Source: Clostridia bacterium (GTDB lineage Bacteria > Bacillota > Clostridia > Oscillospirales > Acutalibacteraceae). From it: a DNA stretch of 52,735 nt. The stretch lies in contig CAAGRQ010000132.1 in the NCBI GenBank assembly GCA_900772705.1, positions 1 to 52,735 on the forward strand, in the 5' to 3' direction. Of this stretch, positions 5,501-17,931 are shown one piece after another. The position numbers and the translations under genes are program-made. Below the pieces are notes generated by a model, which saw only the letters and a program-made list of their open reading frames with translations, was not told where the DNA came from and did not search any database. The number at the start of each line of letters is the position of its first letter. Positions within the stretch are counted from its first letter, which is position 1.

Positions 5501-5556
5501 TAATTGACACGAGTTCCCTTTTGTGCTATTATTATAAAGGAAAGCGAGGTCGGAGT

Positions 5557-6222: not shown

Positions 6223-6251
6223 TTGACATAAGACAACTAACAATATATAAT
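6223..6251 (+). promoter_or_regulatory. Sigma-A promoter of ilvC
   Basis: Perfect TTGACA (6223-6228), 17 bp spacer, TATAAT (6246-6251). Confidence 0.85.
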
Positions 6252-6330: not shown

Positions 6331-7359
<1,029 letters not shown>

Positions 7360-7381
7360 TCTATAACAAATTTATATATAG

Positions 7382-7420
7382 AAAACGCTACCGAATTAAT
7401 TTCGATAGCGTTTTTATTTT
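7382..7420 (+). terminator. Rho-independent terminator of ilvC
   Basis: AAAACGCTACCGAA...TTCGATAGCGTTTTT hairpin with U tract. Confidence 0.8.
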
Positions 7421-7429
7421 GCCCCGTTA

Positions 7430-7579
7430 ATATGGGATAACGCACAGAAGTTAGCCGATACTCTTAATACCGAACTTGCACAAGGCTTTGCAAGGGGCGA
7501 GGCTTACGAAAAACTCACAAAGCAGATTATCAATAAATTCGAGACAGTCTCTCGTAATAATGCTTATAGACTCAGTTAA
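7430..7579 (+). pseudogene. Internal fragment of a phage minor capsid protein (MuF/SPP1 gp7-like)
   Basis: Startless frame IWDNAQKLADTLNTELAQGFARGEAYEKLTKQIINKFETVSRNNAYRLS*; resembles the IW..L..EL.QG..RG..A.RL segment of MuF and stops just before the expected RTE motif. Confidence 0.7.
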
Positions 7580-7710
7580 ATAAGACGAGAGCACAAAAGG
7601 TATTGAATAATCTGTCTGCTAATGGTACAATGTTAAAGGATGTTGATACAGGCAAGTATCAGTTTCCTATAACCGAAAAATCGTTAGAAAGAGTAAAGGC
7701 TATTTTCTAA
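7579..7710 (+). pseudogene. Second fragment of the phage minor capsid gene (linker and start of C-terminal extension), shifted frame
   Basis: NKTRAQKVLNNLSANGTMLKDVDTGKYQFPITEKSLERVKAIF*; resembles the linker ahead of toxin domains in long MuF proteins. Confidence 0.45.
7603..7631 (+). promoter_or_regulatory. Sigma-A promoter embedded in the MuF linker coding sequence
   Basis: TTGAAT (7603-7608), 17 bp spacer, TACAAT (7626-7631) with TGn extended -10. Confidence 0.7.
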
Positions 7711-7721
7711 GAAAATCTAAT

Positions 7722-7946
7722 ATGATGGGTATTGAGTGTATCGGAAATTCAGGCAATATTATTTACTCGTTTGTAAAACCTACTAATATTAAACCTGATA
7801 TATACGGATATGTAGATTACCTTAATGTTAGGTATCCTGAATATGAAGCATGTAAACATGGCAGAGATATAGAAAAAGCATATAAAATATGTGAGGAGGC
7901 TTTTTATGAAGCAGAAAAATACGGATACAAAATCTATACAAGATGA
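7722..7946 (+). pseudogene. Probable C-terminal remnant of a MuF-linked toxin domain (74-aa ORF)
   Basis: No clear RBS; frame open upstream (YFLRKSN-MMGIECIGNSGNIIYSFVK); lies between the MuF linker and an overlapping small acidic ORF. Confidence 0.45.
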
Positions 7947-8055
7947 TGATTTGGATTTTATGCTTGATGAGTTTATAGGATATGAAAAGTTTCATAAAAT
8001 CATTAAACAGTTAATAGATGAATGCGAGGAAGAGGAAAAGGATGATGAGCAATGA
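7906..8055 (+). CDS. 49-aa acidic protein, candidate immunity protein (not in ORF track)
   Basis: GAGGAGG RBS (7893-7899), ATG 7906, MKQKNTDTKSIQDDDLDFMLDEFIGYEKFHKIIKQLIDECEEEEKDDEQ*; overlaps the upstream ORF by 41 nt. Confidence 0.6.
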   Translation: MKQKNTDTKSIQDDDLDFMLDEFIGYEKFHKIIKQLIDECEEEEKDDEQ

Positions 8056-8084
8056 AGATAGATACGGTTATATTTAGGATATTT

Positions 8085-8112
8085 AAGCACCTTTAATCAG
8101 GTGCTTTTATTA
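8085..8112 (+). terminator. Phage-type Rho-independent terminator
   Basis: AAGCACCT-TTAATC-AGGTGCTT followed by TTATTATGCC. Confidence 0.75.
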
Positions 8113-8128
8113 TGCCTTGAGGTAATAT

Positions 8129-8212
8129 ATGACAACAGTAACCCTAGAAAACAACCGTCTATCGGTCGCAGGACACGCAGGCTACGGCAATGTCGGTTAT
8201 GATATAGTATCT
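8129..8212 (+). pseudogene. prp: 5' fragment of a Prp-family (DUF464) cysteine protease
   Basis: GAGGT RBS; MTTVTLENNRLSVAGHAGYGNVGYDIV matches the GHAxY..G.DIVCA signature but similarity stops at the Cys position. Confidence 0.75.
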
Positions 8213-8244
8213 GAAAGAGAGAAGCCGAACAATAACATAACAAC

Positions 8245-8287
8245 AAAAAACTCGCAGGTTTTATTAGACCTACGAGTTTTATATTTT
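8245..8287 (-). terminator. Bidirectional terminator downstream of the ABC permease
   Basis: AAAACTCGCAGGT...ACCTACGAGTTTT inverted repeat. Confidence 0.7.
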
Positions 8288-8296
8288 GTATCAAAT

Positions 8297-9547
8297 TTAA
8301 TCTGCTCTGAGGGCTTCAATCGGGCTTAACTGAGCCGCTTTTCGTGCCGGATATACGCCGAATACTAAGCCAACGCCCGAGGAGAAGAGAAGTGCAAGAA
8401 GTATCAGCCAAATGCTTATCTTAGGCTGAATATCAATTATTGCACACGCACCGTACGCTCCCGCAAGCCCCAACGTGACACCGATGATACCGCCGATAAG
8501 GCAGAGTATAACCGACTCGGTCAGGAACTGCATAGTAATCACTCGTGTCTTTGCTCCGAGAGATTTACGAATACCTATCTCTCTCGTTCGCTCCGTTACG
8601 GAAACAAGCATAATATTCATAACGCCGATACCGCCAACAAGAAGAGAAATAGCACCTACACCTGCGATGAAGATAGTAAGAACCTTCATAATAATATCTA
8701 CGATTTCGATATATGTAGCCATATTCTGAGCAGTATACATACCGTTAGAATAGTTGCCGTGAGCGGCTTTCAGGTAGTTAACAGTTGCGTTGCCGACTGC
8801 GTCATAGTCCGCACCCTCTTTGGCAATTACAAAAACATTGGAGAGATTTGCACTTGCGCCTGTTATCTGAGTAAGGGTTGTGCATGGCATAAACAGAGCA
8901 ATAACAGGTTTATCAGAGCCGTTTTGGAACATCTGACCGATATTGCCTCCGCCGCCGAGTGAACTGGTAAGCGAATCAATATTAGCAACACCGCAAACCT
9001 TAATCTTCATCGACTTGCCCGATGAGGTAACGGTAATGCTCTCGCCTGTCGCATCCTCGTAGCCGAAAACATTCTTTGCCGACTCAATACCCATAACGGC
9101 ATACGGCGCATTAGCGGCATATTCCTCATCGGTAAAGAATCTTCCGTACTCGCAGGTATTGGTCATAGCGAACTGAACATCACTGTTTACACCGACCATC
9201 ATTACAGTAGCCTCGGTAGCGGTCTTATCGATAGTAGCGTTACCGAAACCCATAAGCATCGGTGAGCAACGCTCAACGCCGCTGACCTTAGTTTTAATAT
9301 TATCGACATCCTCGAGAGTGATGTAATCGCTGTCGGTTGCCTGTGTTGTATCGCAGGACACCAACACGGCATTGGAACCCATATCCTCAATAAGACCGAC
9401 AATATAGTCCCTTACGCCCGTACCTGCACCGACTATCATAATAACCGAAGTAATACCGATAATAATACCAAGCATAGTAAGCACAGAACGCATCCAATTT
9501 GCTTTTATACACTTTATAGCGATTTTTAAGCTTTCTGTTATATTCAC
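8297..9547 (-). CDS. MacB/FtsX-family ABC transporter permease
   Basis: RSVLTMLGIIIGI; SLLVGGIGVMNIMLVSVTERTREIGIRKSLGA; PARKAAQLSPIEALR. Confidence 0.93.
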   Translation of the reverse strand: MNITESLKIAIKCIKANWMRSVLTMLGIIIGITSVIMIVGAGTGVRDYIVGLIEDMGSNAVLVSCDTTQATDSDYITLEDVDNIKTKVSGVERCSPMLMGFGNATIDKTATEATVMMVGVNSDVQFAMTNTCEYGRFFTDEEYAANAPYAVMGIESAKNVFGYEDATGESITVTSSGKSMKIKVCGVANIDSLTSSLGGGGNIGQMFQNGSDKPVIALFMPCTTLTQITGASANLSNVFVIAKEGADYDAVGNATVNYLKAAHGNYSNGMYTAQNMATYIEIVDIIMKVLTIFIAGVGAISLLVGGIGVMNIMLVSVTERTREIGIRKSLGAKTRVITMQFLTESVILCLIGGIIGVTLGLAGAYGACAIIDIQPKISIWLILLALLFSSGVGLVFGVYPARKAAQLSPIEALRAD

Positions 9548-15603: not shown

Positions 15604-15639
15604 AAGGCACAGACGGCATTTTATACCTGTCTGTACCTT
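15604..15639 (-). terminator. Putative terminator after the LRR protein gene
   Basis: Minus strand AAGGTACAGAC...GTCTGTGCCTT followed by GTTTT. Confidence 0.6.
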
Positions 15640-17540
15640 TAACTTCTTCTCCTGAGCAAATAATTATTGCCGAACTGCCAATAATCGTCCCCGAGAGTAT
15701 CTCTTTTTTCGTAGTAATAAATCAAATAATCCTTTGCGTTTACAACGCCGTCAGCGTTCATATCATAAGGTTTAAGCGCAATATTTCCGTAATCATAACT
15801 GCCTTTTTCGTCAACGCTCAGATAAAGCCGTGCGTCCTCTCCGTATTCATTATGAACCGTTGCATAACAATCATCGTAAGTACGAACACACCATGTGCCG
15901 TCGGCGTTTACATTATATCTTCTGCCGTCAAGCGTAATATAGGCTTGAGAATACGCAACATTATTTTCGTGCGTGCCGTAACTGTCCTCGTCCATAACGA
16001 ATCTGCCCGTAACCTTATAGGAAGTTGTTTCGACAAAATCAGCCTTATAACTGTCGTCGCAATTAACACAGGTATAAAGGGTATAGCCGTCGTTATCGAC
16101 AGTAGGATTAATAACCTCTCCCACATAACTGTGCTTTACCGTAAACGGATAAGAAGCATTACAGCCCTTTAGCGAAAGATGTGCCTCATTTTCTCCGCAG
16201 GAGAATGGCTTTTCGCTCTGGTCATCGGCATTTTTTACATAATCGCCGGCAATGTATCTGCTGTAATAAATTTCCTCTTTTTGTCCGTCTGCAAAGGACA
16301 CGGTGAGAATGAAACCGCCGAGCATAGAATGGGTAACAGCAAAAACACGCTTGTCGCCGTCCTGTTTTGAATCGGCGGCGGAAACGGTGAGCGAGCCTTT
16401 GTAAACCGACAGAGCCGAAATTTCACTCGGATAAACAAATATGCTGTAATCACCGGTCATCTTAACGGACGAGACATAAATATCGTACTTTTTGCCCTTT
16501 TGCATAATCTCGTCAAAACAAAAACCCGAATTGGATTTATCAATATCGTCACTCTCGGCAATCAGTTTTCCGTCAAGGTAAAGCTGAGCTTTGAGGTCGC
16601 ACTCACCCGAGGAATAAATGCTGTAACGTTGATTCGTTTCAGGCGTAAAAGTATAATGCAACTTATCATTAATTATATCGGAAGTAATCGTATTGGGGTT
16701 TTCCACGCATTCGTTAAGATCAAAACTTAGCAAAAGCGAATATAAAATTCCATTATTCTTTGCGTAATAATACGGCTGGGATTCGGAATAAACCTTAAGC
16801 GAAAAGCCGTCAATTACCTTATTTGAAATATTATAACCGAATGACATAACATCACAGGAAGCATTGCTCGGAAGGGTTACATTAAGCAAAGAAGTGCAAC
16901 CGTAAAACGCTTTTGAGCCGACTGCCGTTTTTTGGGTAGGCGAAGCAAACTTTGCACTGCTAAGCGAAGTGCATCTGTAAAAAGCGTTACTGCCCACCTT
17001 TTTCACAGATGACGGAATGACAATGTTCTCAAGAGAAGTGCACGAAGCAAAAGCCCTGTCGCCGATCGTCTTAACCGATTTCGGCAAAGTAATGCTTTTC
17101 ATTTTGACGCAGTTATTAAATGCGTTAGAATCTATAATCTCTATCCCGAACGGCAAATTCCACTCGGTCATACCGTTGGTGAGCGAAAGAGAATATGTGC
17201 CTATTCTCTTTAGTGTAGTCGGAAGAACAAACTCCTTTGCCTGAACGCCGTAAAACACATAGTCTCCAAGAGAGGTAATTCCCTCTGAAACAACCACCCT
17301 CTGAATTTTGCCGCTTTCCCATTCAAGCCAGGGAATGCTCGCCGTACTGTTAGAGAGATTCGGAATATCTCCGCTTCCGTTTATATAAAGAGTTTTATCG
17401 GCGGCGTCATAGTAATAATATGTAGTGCTGTTTTTTATCTGCGTGCCCTTATACTCCTGAGCCGAAGCGACAAAGGGAACACAAAAAGCGGTCGCAACGA
17501 AAAAACCGAGCGACAAAACAACGCACAAAAGCCTTTTCAT
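15639..17540 (-). CDS. Secreted BspA-type leucine-rich repeat protein with C-terminal dockerin-like motif
   Basis: AAGGAGG RBS, signal peptide ending ASA, repeats such as LPKSVKTIGDRAFASCTSL, HSY..PT..GYT.YTC..C.DSY module, DMNADGVVNAKDY. Confidence 0.85.
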   Translation of the reverse strand: MKRLLCVVLSLGFFVATAFCVPFVASAQEYKGTQIKNSTTYYYYDAADKTLYINGSGDIPNLSNSTASIPWLEWESGKIQRVVVSEGITSLGDYVFYGVQAKEFVLPTTLKRIGTYSLSLTNGMTEWNLPFGIEIIDSNAFNNCVKMKSITLPKSVKTIGDRAFASCTSLENIVIPSSVKKVGSNAFYRCTSLSSAKFASPTQKTAVGSKAFYGCTSLLNVTLPSNASCDVMSFGYNISNKVIDGFSLKVYSESQPYYYAKNNGILYSLLLSFDLNECVENPNTITSDIINDKLHYTFTPETNQRYSIYSSGECDLKAQLYLDGKLIAESDDIDKSNSGFCFDEIMQKGKKYDIYVSSVKMTGDYSIFVYPSEISALSVYKGSLTVSAADSKQDGDKRVFAVTHSMLGGFILTVSFADGQKEEIYYSRYIAGDYVKNADDQSEKPFSCGENEAHLSLKGCNASYPFTVKHSYVGEVINPTVDNDGYTLYTCVNCDDSYKADFVETTSYKVTGRFVMDEDSYGTHENNVAYSQAYITLDGRRYNVNADGTWCVRTYDDCYATVHNEYGEDARLYLSVDEKGSYDYGNIALKPYDMNADGVVNAKDYLIYYYEKRDTLGDDYWQFGNNYLLRRRS

Positions 17541-17562
17541 TACAACCGCCTCCTTATTTTTA

Positions 17563-17931
17563 TCAATCGTTTTCTTCAATATGCTCCAGACCCATAGCAA
17601 TAATGGTGCGTACATGGTCATCGGAGAGAGAATAGAAAACGGACTTTCCCTCTCGCCTGCTCTTTACAAGTTTATTTGCCTTGAGTATTCTGAGTTGGTG
17701 CGATATGGCAGACTGCGTCATATTAAGCGCATTTGCAAGGTCGCACACACAAACCTCCGCCTCAAAAAGAACGAACAAAATTCTTATTCTCGTTGAGTCG
17801 CCGAACACCTTAAACAGTTCCGACAAATCGTATAATTCTGTCTCGGCAGGCATTTTTTCATTAACGATTTTCAGCAGATTTTCATGGATGCAATTATCCT
17901 CACAGCAATCTGCCGTCTTATTTTCCGACAT
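17563..17931 (-). CDS. ArsR/SmtB-family metal-sensing repressor
   Basis: FKVFGDSTRIRIL, EVCVCDLA, SAISHQLRIL, alpha5 site DDHV..EHIEE, N-terminal CCEDNCIH. Confidence 0.93.
   Translation of the reverse strand: MSENKTADCCEDNCIHENLLKIVNEKMPAETELYDLSELFKVFGDSTRIRILFVLFEAEVCVCDLANALNMTQSAISHQLRILKANKLVKSRREGKSVFYSLSDDHVRTIIAMGLEHIEEND

Follow-up and report, generated by a model that had tools for sequence, protein, structure and literature searches.

Remnant of a phage MuF gene with a C-terminal JAB/MPN domain, a linker promoter motif and a small acidic open reading frame at a chromosomal site of a Clostridia bacterium

The window analysed here, a stretch of 52,735 nt from a Clostridia bacterium (contig CAAGRQ010000132.1), contains a 0.94-kb gap where two genes converge, which we take from their translations to be ilvC (6343-7359, + strand) and an ABC permease gene (8297-9547, - strand), and within this gap lie low-GC pieces that form a remnant of 0.8 kb. 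Sequence comparison traces this ilvC-permease remnant to a phage MuF gene that ended in a JAB/MPN domain. The wider pattern is the stronger finding: three chromosomal sites in close relatives hold MuF, small open reading frame (ORF) and Prp scraps with swapped alleles. We give about an even chance to the reading that a chromosomal MuF toxin-immunity cassette lost its toxin here and left an orphan immunity unit. The MuF linker promoter motif and the toxin-less MuF-JAB remnant at a host site are real features that appear to be new, whereas MuF toxins with immunity genes, internal promoters in Rhs genes and orphan immunity arrays were already known. The parts of the remnant are as follows.

7382-7414, + strand: host hairpin after ilvC (-15.9 kcal/mol), left edge of the remnant
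7429-7571, + strand: MuF (SPP1 gp7-like) fragment, start codon absent (PHROG 115, E 5.7e-10; 89% to the intact prophage L017)
7572-7697, + strand: MuF linker fragment, joined to the preceding piece by a 244-nt deletion, with the MuF core gone (aligned to the relative L013)
7603-7631, + strand: sigma-A-type promoter motif (-35, 17 nt, extended -10)
7698-7946, + strand: JAB/MPN C-terminal lobe, after a 256-nt deletion of the E..HNHP..S..D motif (fold from an intact relative)
7893-7899, + strand: ribosome-binding site (RBS) GAGGAGG, spelled by JAB codons E-E-A (same in L013 and L012)
7906-8055, + strand: 49-aa acidic ORF, candidate cognate immunity protein
8052-8096, + strand: YjcQ-like gene stub, 14 codons (~286 nt missing relative to L012)
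8085-8112, + strand: phage hairpin (8085-8106, -10.8 kcal/mol) with T-rich tail, candidate intrinsic terminator
8129-8213, + strand: 5' stub of a phage Prp-family protease gene (PF04327, E 0.0065, below the cut-off; 86% amino acid identity to the intact L017 gene)
8247-8280, - strand: host terminator of the ABC permease gene, right edge of the remnant (also at the remnant-free site in G022)

The hairpin after ilvC likely shields the remnant from read-through. A preliminary description of this DNA held that every flanking phage gene is broken, which is the case for MuF, the JAB domain, the YjcQ-like gene and Prp; the breaks are deletions, and nonsense point mutations are absent from the surviving fragments. 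It also held that the 49-aa ORF is the only intact one with a strong RBS and is followed by a terminator. The GAGGAGG site is present, but a 74-aa ORF spanning the JAB C-lobe (7722-7946) also runs uninterrupted from ATG to stop, has no RBS and shares 41 nt with the small ORF; the hairpin with its T-rich tail is likewise present, but the YjcQ-like stub lies in between. A similar hairpin precedes Prp in L012 and in the intact prophage L017, and the YjcQ-like gene of L012 matches PF09639 (E 1.3e-20). No Rfam families were found in the window. As separate observations, a protein identical to the 74-aa ORF occurs on 17 contigs, and 76-aa variants with another C-terminus (P0057-P0059) hint that the core was lost in the same way next to another allele of the small gene. 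At three different chromosomal sites (window 8129-8213; L013 6038-6120; L012 6310-6395; also L190 in G093, where the join runs into a tRNA-end-like repeat) the end of the Prp stub lies no more than one or two codons from a D-I-V-C-A motif, which may reflect a hot spot, a common origin or selection against Prp.

Comparison of the JAB lobe (7710-7943) with longer proteins gave eight matches among 17 candidates, all with PF04233 and 62-76% identity, and the protein P0003 is a 509-aa full-length MuF (PF04233, E 1.2e-23). The full-length homologue of the toxin fragment that had been called for was thus found among MuF proteins, and genes homologous to the small ORF follow the domain where it is full-length. 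Residues E52, H88, H90, S97 and D100 (an E...HxH-x7-S-x2-D motif) are conserved in at least 90% of 22 rows of relatives; this JAMM motif is deleted in the window. The model of an intact-relative JAB domain (pLDDT 89.6) has JAMM enzymes as its closest folds, at modest Z scores of 6.8 and 6.5 (top match: rmsd 3.9, 129 aligned residues, Foldseek E 0.14), with deaminase-fold rows close behind (Z <8). An earlier model of MuF core plus JAB from eight rows was discarded, its pLDDT of 52.7 making the fold search meaningless. There was no Pfam match at the cut-off, the best being Toxin-JAB1 (PF15659, E 0.053, in one of the 22 rows), with PF14220 also considered; the Tox-JAB atlas score of 0.80 is a lead only. 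Searches by sequence for a solved-structure relative of the domain, of the annotated phage collection and viral contigs, and of the genome contigs with the MuF-JAB alignment returned nothing, and P0081 was rejected as a repeat protein. L012/L013, L014, L017 and L018 have a common MuF core and diverge after the linker. A head-packaging context (portal, terminase) is present in L017, L018, G044, G065 and G070; in the window genome (G000, 84% complete) no other head genes were found by tblastn of the L017 frames. The JAB domain of these MuF proteins is a predicted toxin.

A metagenome scan, in which 80 of 185 confirmed matches were kept, contained the same ilvC-permease site in a relative (L013; pS of host genes 0.11-0.35). 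Here the MuF core, the linker and the whole C-terminal domain are open (284 aa, P0060, on 91 contigs), and the small gene is a 51-aa allele (P0032, on 171 contigs). Relative to L013, the window lacks 244 nt of the MuF core and 256 nt of the catalytic stretch, which upholds the earlier proposal that deletions had removed the MuF core and the toxin-like core. L017 has a microhomology of ~9 nt at the 244-nt join. The idea that the linker frame and the 74-aa frame meet through a one-base frameshift was rejected, as this join is the 256-nt deletion. The YjcQ-like gene and Prp are truncated at the same places in the window and L013, and these truncations are therefore older than the window's two deletions. 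Promoter, ORF and hairpin were indeed spared, but this had been taken as a sign of keeping by the host, and two random deletions of these sizes spare all three in 12.6% of simulations (p = 0.13). The closest species representative, G022, has no remnant at its ilvC site, and among the best 30 ilvC loci in the genus a remnant was found only at the window's own locus. As the L013 remnant has an intact JAB frame, the ilvC site is not kept for immunity alone.

Identity between the window and L013 is 100% in the promoter, 93-97% in the linker, JAB tail and hairpin, 80% in the variable JAB lobe and 56% in the unique part of the small ORF, which makes the small ORF the least conserved part of the remnant. 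This points to allele replacement and not to the slow conservation of one domesticated gene, and together with the intact JAB domain of L013 it speaks against the preliminary picture of a single gene kept by the host. The startless MuF piece differs mainly silently between the two (9.5/26 silent against 3.5/91 non-silent; pS 0.37, pN 0.04; Fisher p ~1e-4), as if both copies came from working phage genes. Breakage of JAB first (window, L012, G069, G083, G045, G140) is expected from target size (p 0.25-0.31). For the small ORF, the low pN/pS could be a legacy of its time in phages, and we doubt that the host selects for the window copy.

The 49-aa ORF is strongly acidic (17 D/E, 7 K/R, pI 4.2), with GAGGAGG ending 6 nt before its ATG, and its RBS and first 13 codons lie inside the JAB frame. 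The 49-aa protein occurs on 36 contigs. An ORF of 40-66 aa overlaps or abuts the end of JAB in 18 of the 19 genus loci with that end on the contig. In MuF-JAB loci the usual start is an ATG made by conserved Tyr-Gly codons; in the window lineage this pair has lost the ATG, and the gene starts at another ATG further upstream, preceded by GAGGAGG. All eight DNA copies (six sequences) are open, with pS above pN in each of the 28 pairwise comparisons; the window copy and copy 1 of L196, the same allele at two sites, differ by three synonymous changes and one non-synonymous change. The narrow family of the small ORF has ten matches, one of them spurious, in 1.84 billion representatives, one of its proteins being labelled 'uncultured Eubacterium sp.' in the database. 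A search of genome contigs gave two loci, and searches for a family, atlas or distant match gave none. We conclude that the small ORF is very probably a genuine phage gene, and, from its position, that its product may well be the cognate immunity protein.

The promoter motif is as previously described: TTGAAT (7603-7608), a 17-nt spacer with TG at 7623-7624 (-15/-14) and TACAAT (7626-7631), encoded by the LNNLSANGTM codons. In a plain scan it is weak on its own (9/12 plus TG; 23 matches in 6 kb, compared with 13.9 +/- 3.9 after shuffling). With a MuF-independent matrix built from 220 of the host's 823 upstream regions, its score is 13.5; 0.5% of 600 coding windows score at least as high, as do 19% of the 823 upstream windows. 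It is the only strict match within 7360-8330, is identical in L013 and has the same hexamers in L012. For the linker survey, which had been suggested earlier, 79 MuF-core motifs were found, three with extensions <60 aa were left out and the rest were reduced to 29 representatives; the sample, seeded from the query's family, does not represent MuF genes at random. The strict rule, set after inspection of the MuF-core survey, was matched by 14 of the 29 linkers against 2/142 control windows of the same genes, 0/29 reverse strands and 32/3929 windows of host coding background, with 1.8 matches expected from synonymous resampling and 0.4 from codon shuffling. The enrichment also holds with the host matrix (13/29 linkers vs 6/142 control windows, p 9e-8), and with it after removal of the four linkers sharing the query's -35 (9/25, p 3e-5). 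Hexamers and 17-nt spacing are constant, spacer and amino acids vary, and unrelated C-terminal domains start just past the -10. The motif is present in the intact prophages L017 and L018 and in five of the seven intact JAB loci of the genus; the intact JAB phage L014 has no such motif, nor, by the strict rule, do 15 of the 29 linkers. Its frequency in truncated loci (7/14) does not exceed that in intact prophages (5/7). Its presence in intact prophages makes it a phage feature that domestication did not create. Phages already have the promoter motif, the RBS and the hairpin, which counts against a simple story of domestication, and a promoter or terminator arising after capture was rejected, both occurring in intact prophages. 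We regard the motif as probably a working promoter, phage-made and best read as serving the small gene. There is no in-frame ATG, GTG or TTG within 120 nt of the predicted transcript start in L013, L010, L011, L017 and L102; the other 13 rows, scored for the same three codons, have one, mostly without an evident RBS.

At a second site, before a tRNA-Leu gene (G022, G093, L196), a dead fragment of a different toxin (pN ~0.07-0.08, pS 0-0.07) is followed by one or two small ORFs of different alleles, L196 carrying the window's allele and G093 the L012 allele. Three copies of a 55-codon stretch of the dead fragment contain three stops, different in each genome, and all five adjacent small ORFs are open. 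The small ORFs form tandem pairs in G022 and L196, and the window has one. By eye, TTGCAA-17-TAAA(A/C)T lies upstream of the small ORF at this site. Between the tandem copies (L004 in G022, 1250-1690; L196, 370-770) runs a hybrid frame in which the beginning of the YjcQ-like gene is fused to the 28 final codons of JAB, and with these codons come the RBS and start of the second copy. In L004 (900-1150) and L190, the stretch from the tRNA gene to the remnant contains hairpins and degenerate repeats of the tRNA-Leu 3' end that resemble scars left by successive integrations. The third site has the order of what are presumably a sigma-factor gene, tRNA-Leu, the remnant, and holin and amidase genes. 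It holds a frameshifted MuF-JAB and a small ORF in L012, only a small ORF of another JAB subfamily in G022, and in G093 only the tail of an immunity-like ORF before the holin-amidase end. Ten of eleven matches of a 9-kb probe from the intact prophage L017 in five genomes fell in the MuF-to-Prp interval.

A survey of 145 genomes of the genus with a JAB profile gave 23 matches, of which 21 were retained after the window itself and a spurious match in G017 were set aside. In seven of these loci a portal-like gene precedes a full-length MuF; in the other 14, MuF is 5'-truncated and, as judged by eye, mostly adjoins host genes. In the truncated loci the small ORF is open in 11 (with JAB broken in four of those), gone in one and off the contig in two. 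For PF04233 and PF05133, the two families compared, and irrespective of contig ends, 24/41 PF04233 matches have no PF05133 match within 3 kb, and the reverse is true of 9/27. Only the 3' end of an immunity-like ORF is kept at G093:C7, a small ORF is kept without the linker promoter at G022:C17, and the JAB-linked ORF is lost in G041. At L205 (G022:C17) the toxin gene is nearly all gone, and ~9 codons of an L014-type JAB end carry the RBS of an intact 41-aa ORF. In L095 (G012), L099 (G045) and L116 (G150:C15) a 5'-truncated MuF lies head-to-head with glyA, with a different C-terminal domain or allele in each.

MuF toxins have been described with a small downstream ORF in 89.4% of 191 muf toxin genes (PMC5576092), with Apk2 (PMC12226406) and Bxa (PMC11699363) as further cases from temperate phages. 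The loci studied here resemble these descriptions in the MuF domain, the variable C-terminal extension, the small ORF, the head-morphogenesis position and the Firmicutes hosts; they differ in having a JAB/MPN C-terminal domain (the main text of PMC5576092 does not contain the word JAB) and in occurring as host-site remnants without a head operon, and the accessible parts of the published descriptions mention no promoter inside muf. In Rhs systems, an internal promoter upstream of the toxin domain is reported to uncouple the expression of toxin and immunity genes (PMC7043789; PMC7618764). Like these, the remnant has a promoter motif within the delivery gene just upstream of the toxin domain, and in both orphan cassettes persist; unlike Rhs, where toxin and immunity are made together as in a type II toxin-antitoxin (TA) system, there is no standard in-frame start and the toxin core is deleted in the window, and the carrier is a phage head protein. 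Acquired interbacterial defence (AID) and polyimmunity loci (10.1101/471110; PMC3482391) likewise comprise toxin-less immunity-like genes in gut bacteria that differ between close relatives, and the tandem copies at one site (G022, L196) are a further likeness; if the ORF is an immunity gene, the window, G022, G093 and L196 all have such genes without the cognate toxin. Unlike AID as presented in these sources, the target would be phage-borne MuF and not T6SS effectors, each site has one or two genes and no array, no dedicated recombinase was seen, and the flanks are phage homology. JAB domains (Tox-JAB-1/Tox-JAB-2, RadC-like) have been proposed from prediction (PMC3482391) as nuclease toxins with immunity partners (PMC3482391; PMC5512222). 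Ours share the JAMM motif and, as far as the modest model scores suggest, may share the fold with Tox-JAB-1/Tox-JAB-2; the carriers given there are RHS and secreted proteins, and their immunity proteins, Imm65 and Imm-NTF2-2, are of other kinds. In the literature searched, nothing turned up on promoters within muf, on MuF-JAB fusions per se or on MuF immunity cassettes retained by hosts; MuF-JAB may be listed in the domain tables of PMC5576092 and PMC3482391. According to a published model (PMC5576092), immunity genes of the prophage protect lysogens; this requires that the immunity protein be produced when the head operon is off, and the linker promoter would supply this missing step. What MuF toxins do in the phage cycle is given as unknown in PMC12254948. 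Copies without a toxin, if retained by hosts, would be evidence from nature that these toxins are delivered and matter.

The orphan immunity reading would run as follows. The phage has a MuF protein with a C-terminal JAB/MPN domain and a small gene that starts in its last codons, and the predicted sigma-A-type promoter in the linker would give a transcript without a standard in-frame start for JAB, so that a lysogen would make the small protein alone, which may confer immunity to its own and incoming MuF-JAB. Upon prophage decay the MuF-to-Prp interval would stay at the ilvC site and, its ends being homologous to related phages, its interior could be replaced by recombination, as the mosaic identity suggests. 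In the window lineage, two deletions would have removed the MuF core and the catalytic motif, and the remaining promoter, small gene and terminator would be an orphan immunity unit that is probably still expressed. A rather unlikely extension is that gut Eubacterium-like bacteria possess 'immunity docks', with the MuF piece and the Prp start as homology arms between which a phage allele is copied in, the toxin is lost and the immunity gene is expressed from the phage linker promoter. If true, this would be an acquired, updatable defence against virion-delivered toxins without a recombinase of its own, and MuF toxins would really act on cells in the gut.

The remnant could also be the leftover of an addiction module, fixed in the manner of TA systems with the toxin made at a low level from the linker transcript through a non-standard start, as in Salmonella Rhs; the toxin would have had to break before anything else, and the small ORF would now persist without use until it decays. 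JAB and small ORF are both open in eight truncated loci (L013, G119, G125, G158, G103, G020, G011:C53, G012:C17), none of the loci examined has an intact JAB with a broken small ORF, internal Rhs transcripts have been reported to use a CTG start (PMC7043789), and the absence of point nonsense changes from the window fragments fits deletions that look young. Four JAB loci (L013, L010, L011, L102) have no in-frame ATG, GTG or TTG after the promoter (CTG, ATT and ATA were not scored), and the second site has open small ORFs, as tandem pairs in two genomes, next to an unrelated toxin fragment that died long ago; on this evidence we hold addiction to be rather improbable. A mere coincidence of codons, with the promoter a by-product of Leu-Asn...Gly-Thr-Met and the 49-aa ORF a shadow frame of the JAB end, could draw on the weak plain-scan score and on the RBS and first 13 codons lying inside the JAB frame, but it is very improbable and already largely refuted: linkers of unrelated amino acid sequence keep TTG-17-TAnnAT, 14 strict matches stand against 1.8 and 0.4 expected, and the ORF is open in 8/8 DNA copies with pS > pN in 28/28 pairs.

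Neutral prophage debris, in which the small ORF is an accessory phage gene of another role and the interval recurs as a recombination hot spot without selection by the host, would be compatible with sparing of the unit by chance (p = 0.13), with a low pN/pS between alleles inherited from the phage stage and with broken small ORFs (G093:C7, G041). Recombination between temperate phages and defective prophages is documented as homologous and tolerant of divergence (PMC3945230), and orphan portal matches also occur (9/27). Recombination leaves unexplained, however, that terminase, portal, scaffold and capsid are all gone while the interval stays at three sites, and 24/41 MuF matches lack a portal within 3 kb; the three stops in three dead 55-codon fragments, against none in five adjacent small ORFs, also make debris unlikely.

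Elsewhere in the window, near-perfect sigma-A promoters lie before ilvC (6223-6251) and before a gene for a GntR-type regulator (5504-5532). An ordinary-looking 660-aa ORF on the minus strand (15639-17621), with leucine-rich-like repeats and a dockerin-like end, sits between what we take to be purE and the gene of an ArsR-type regulator.
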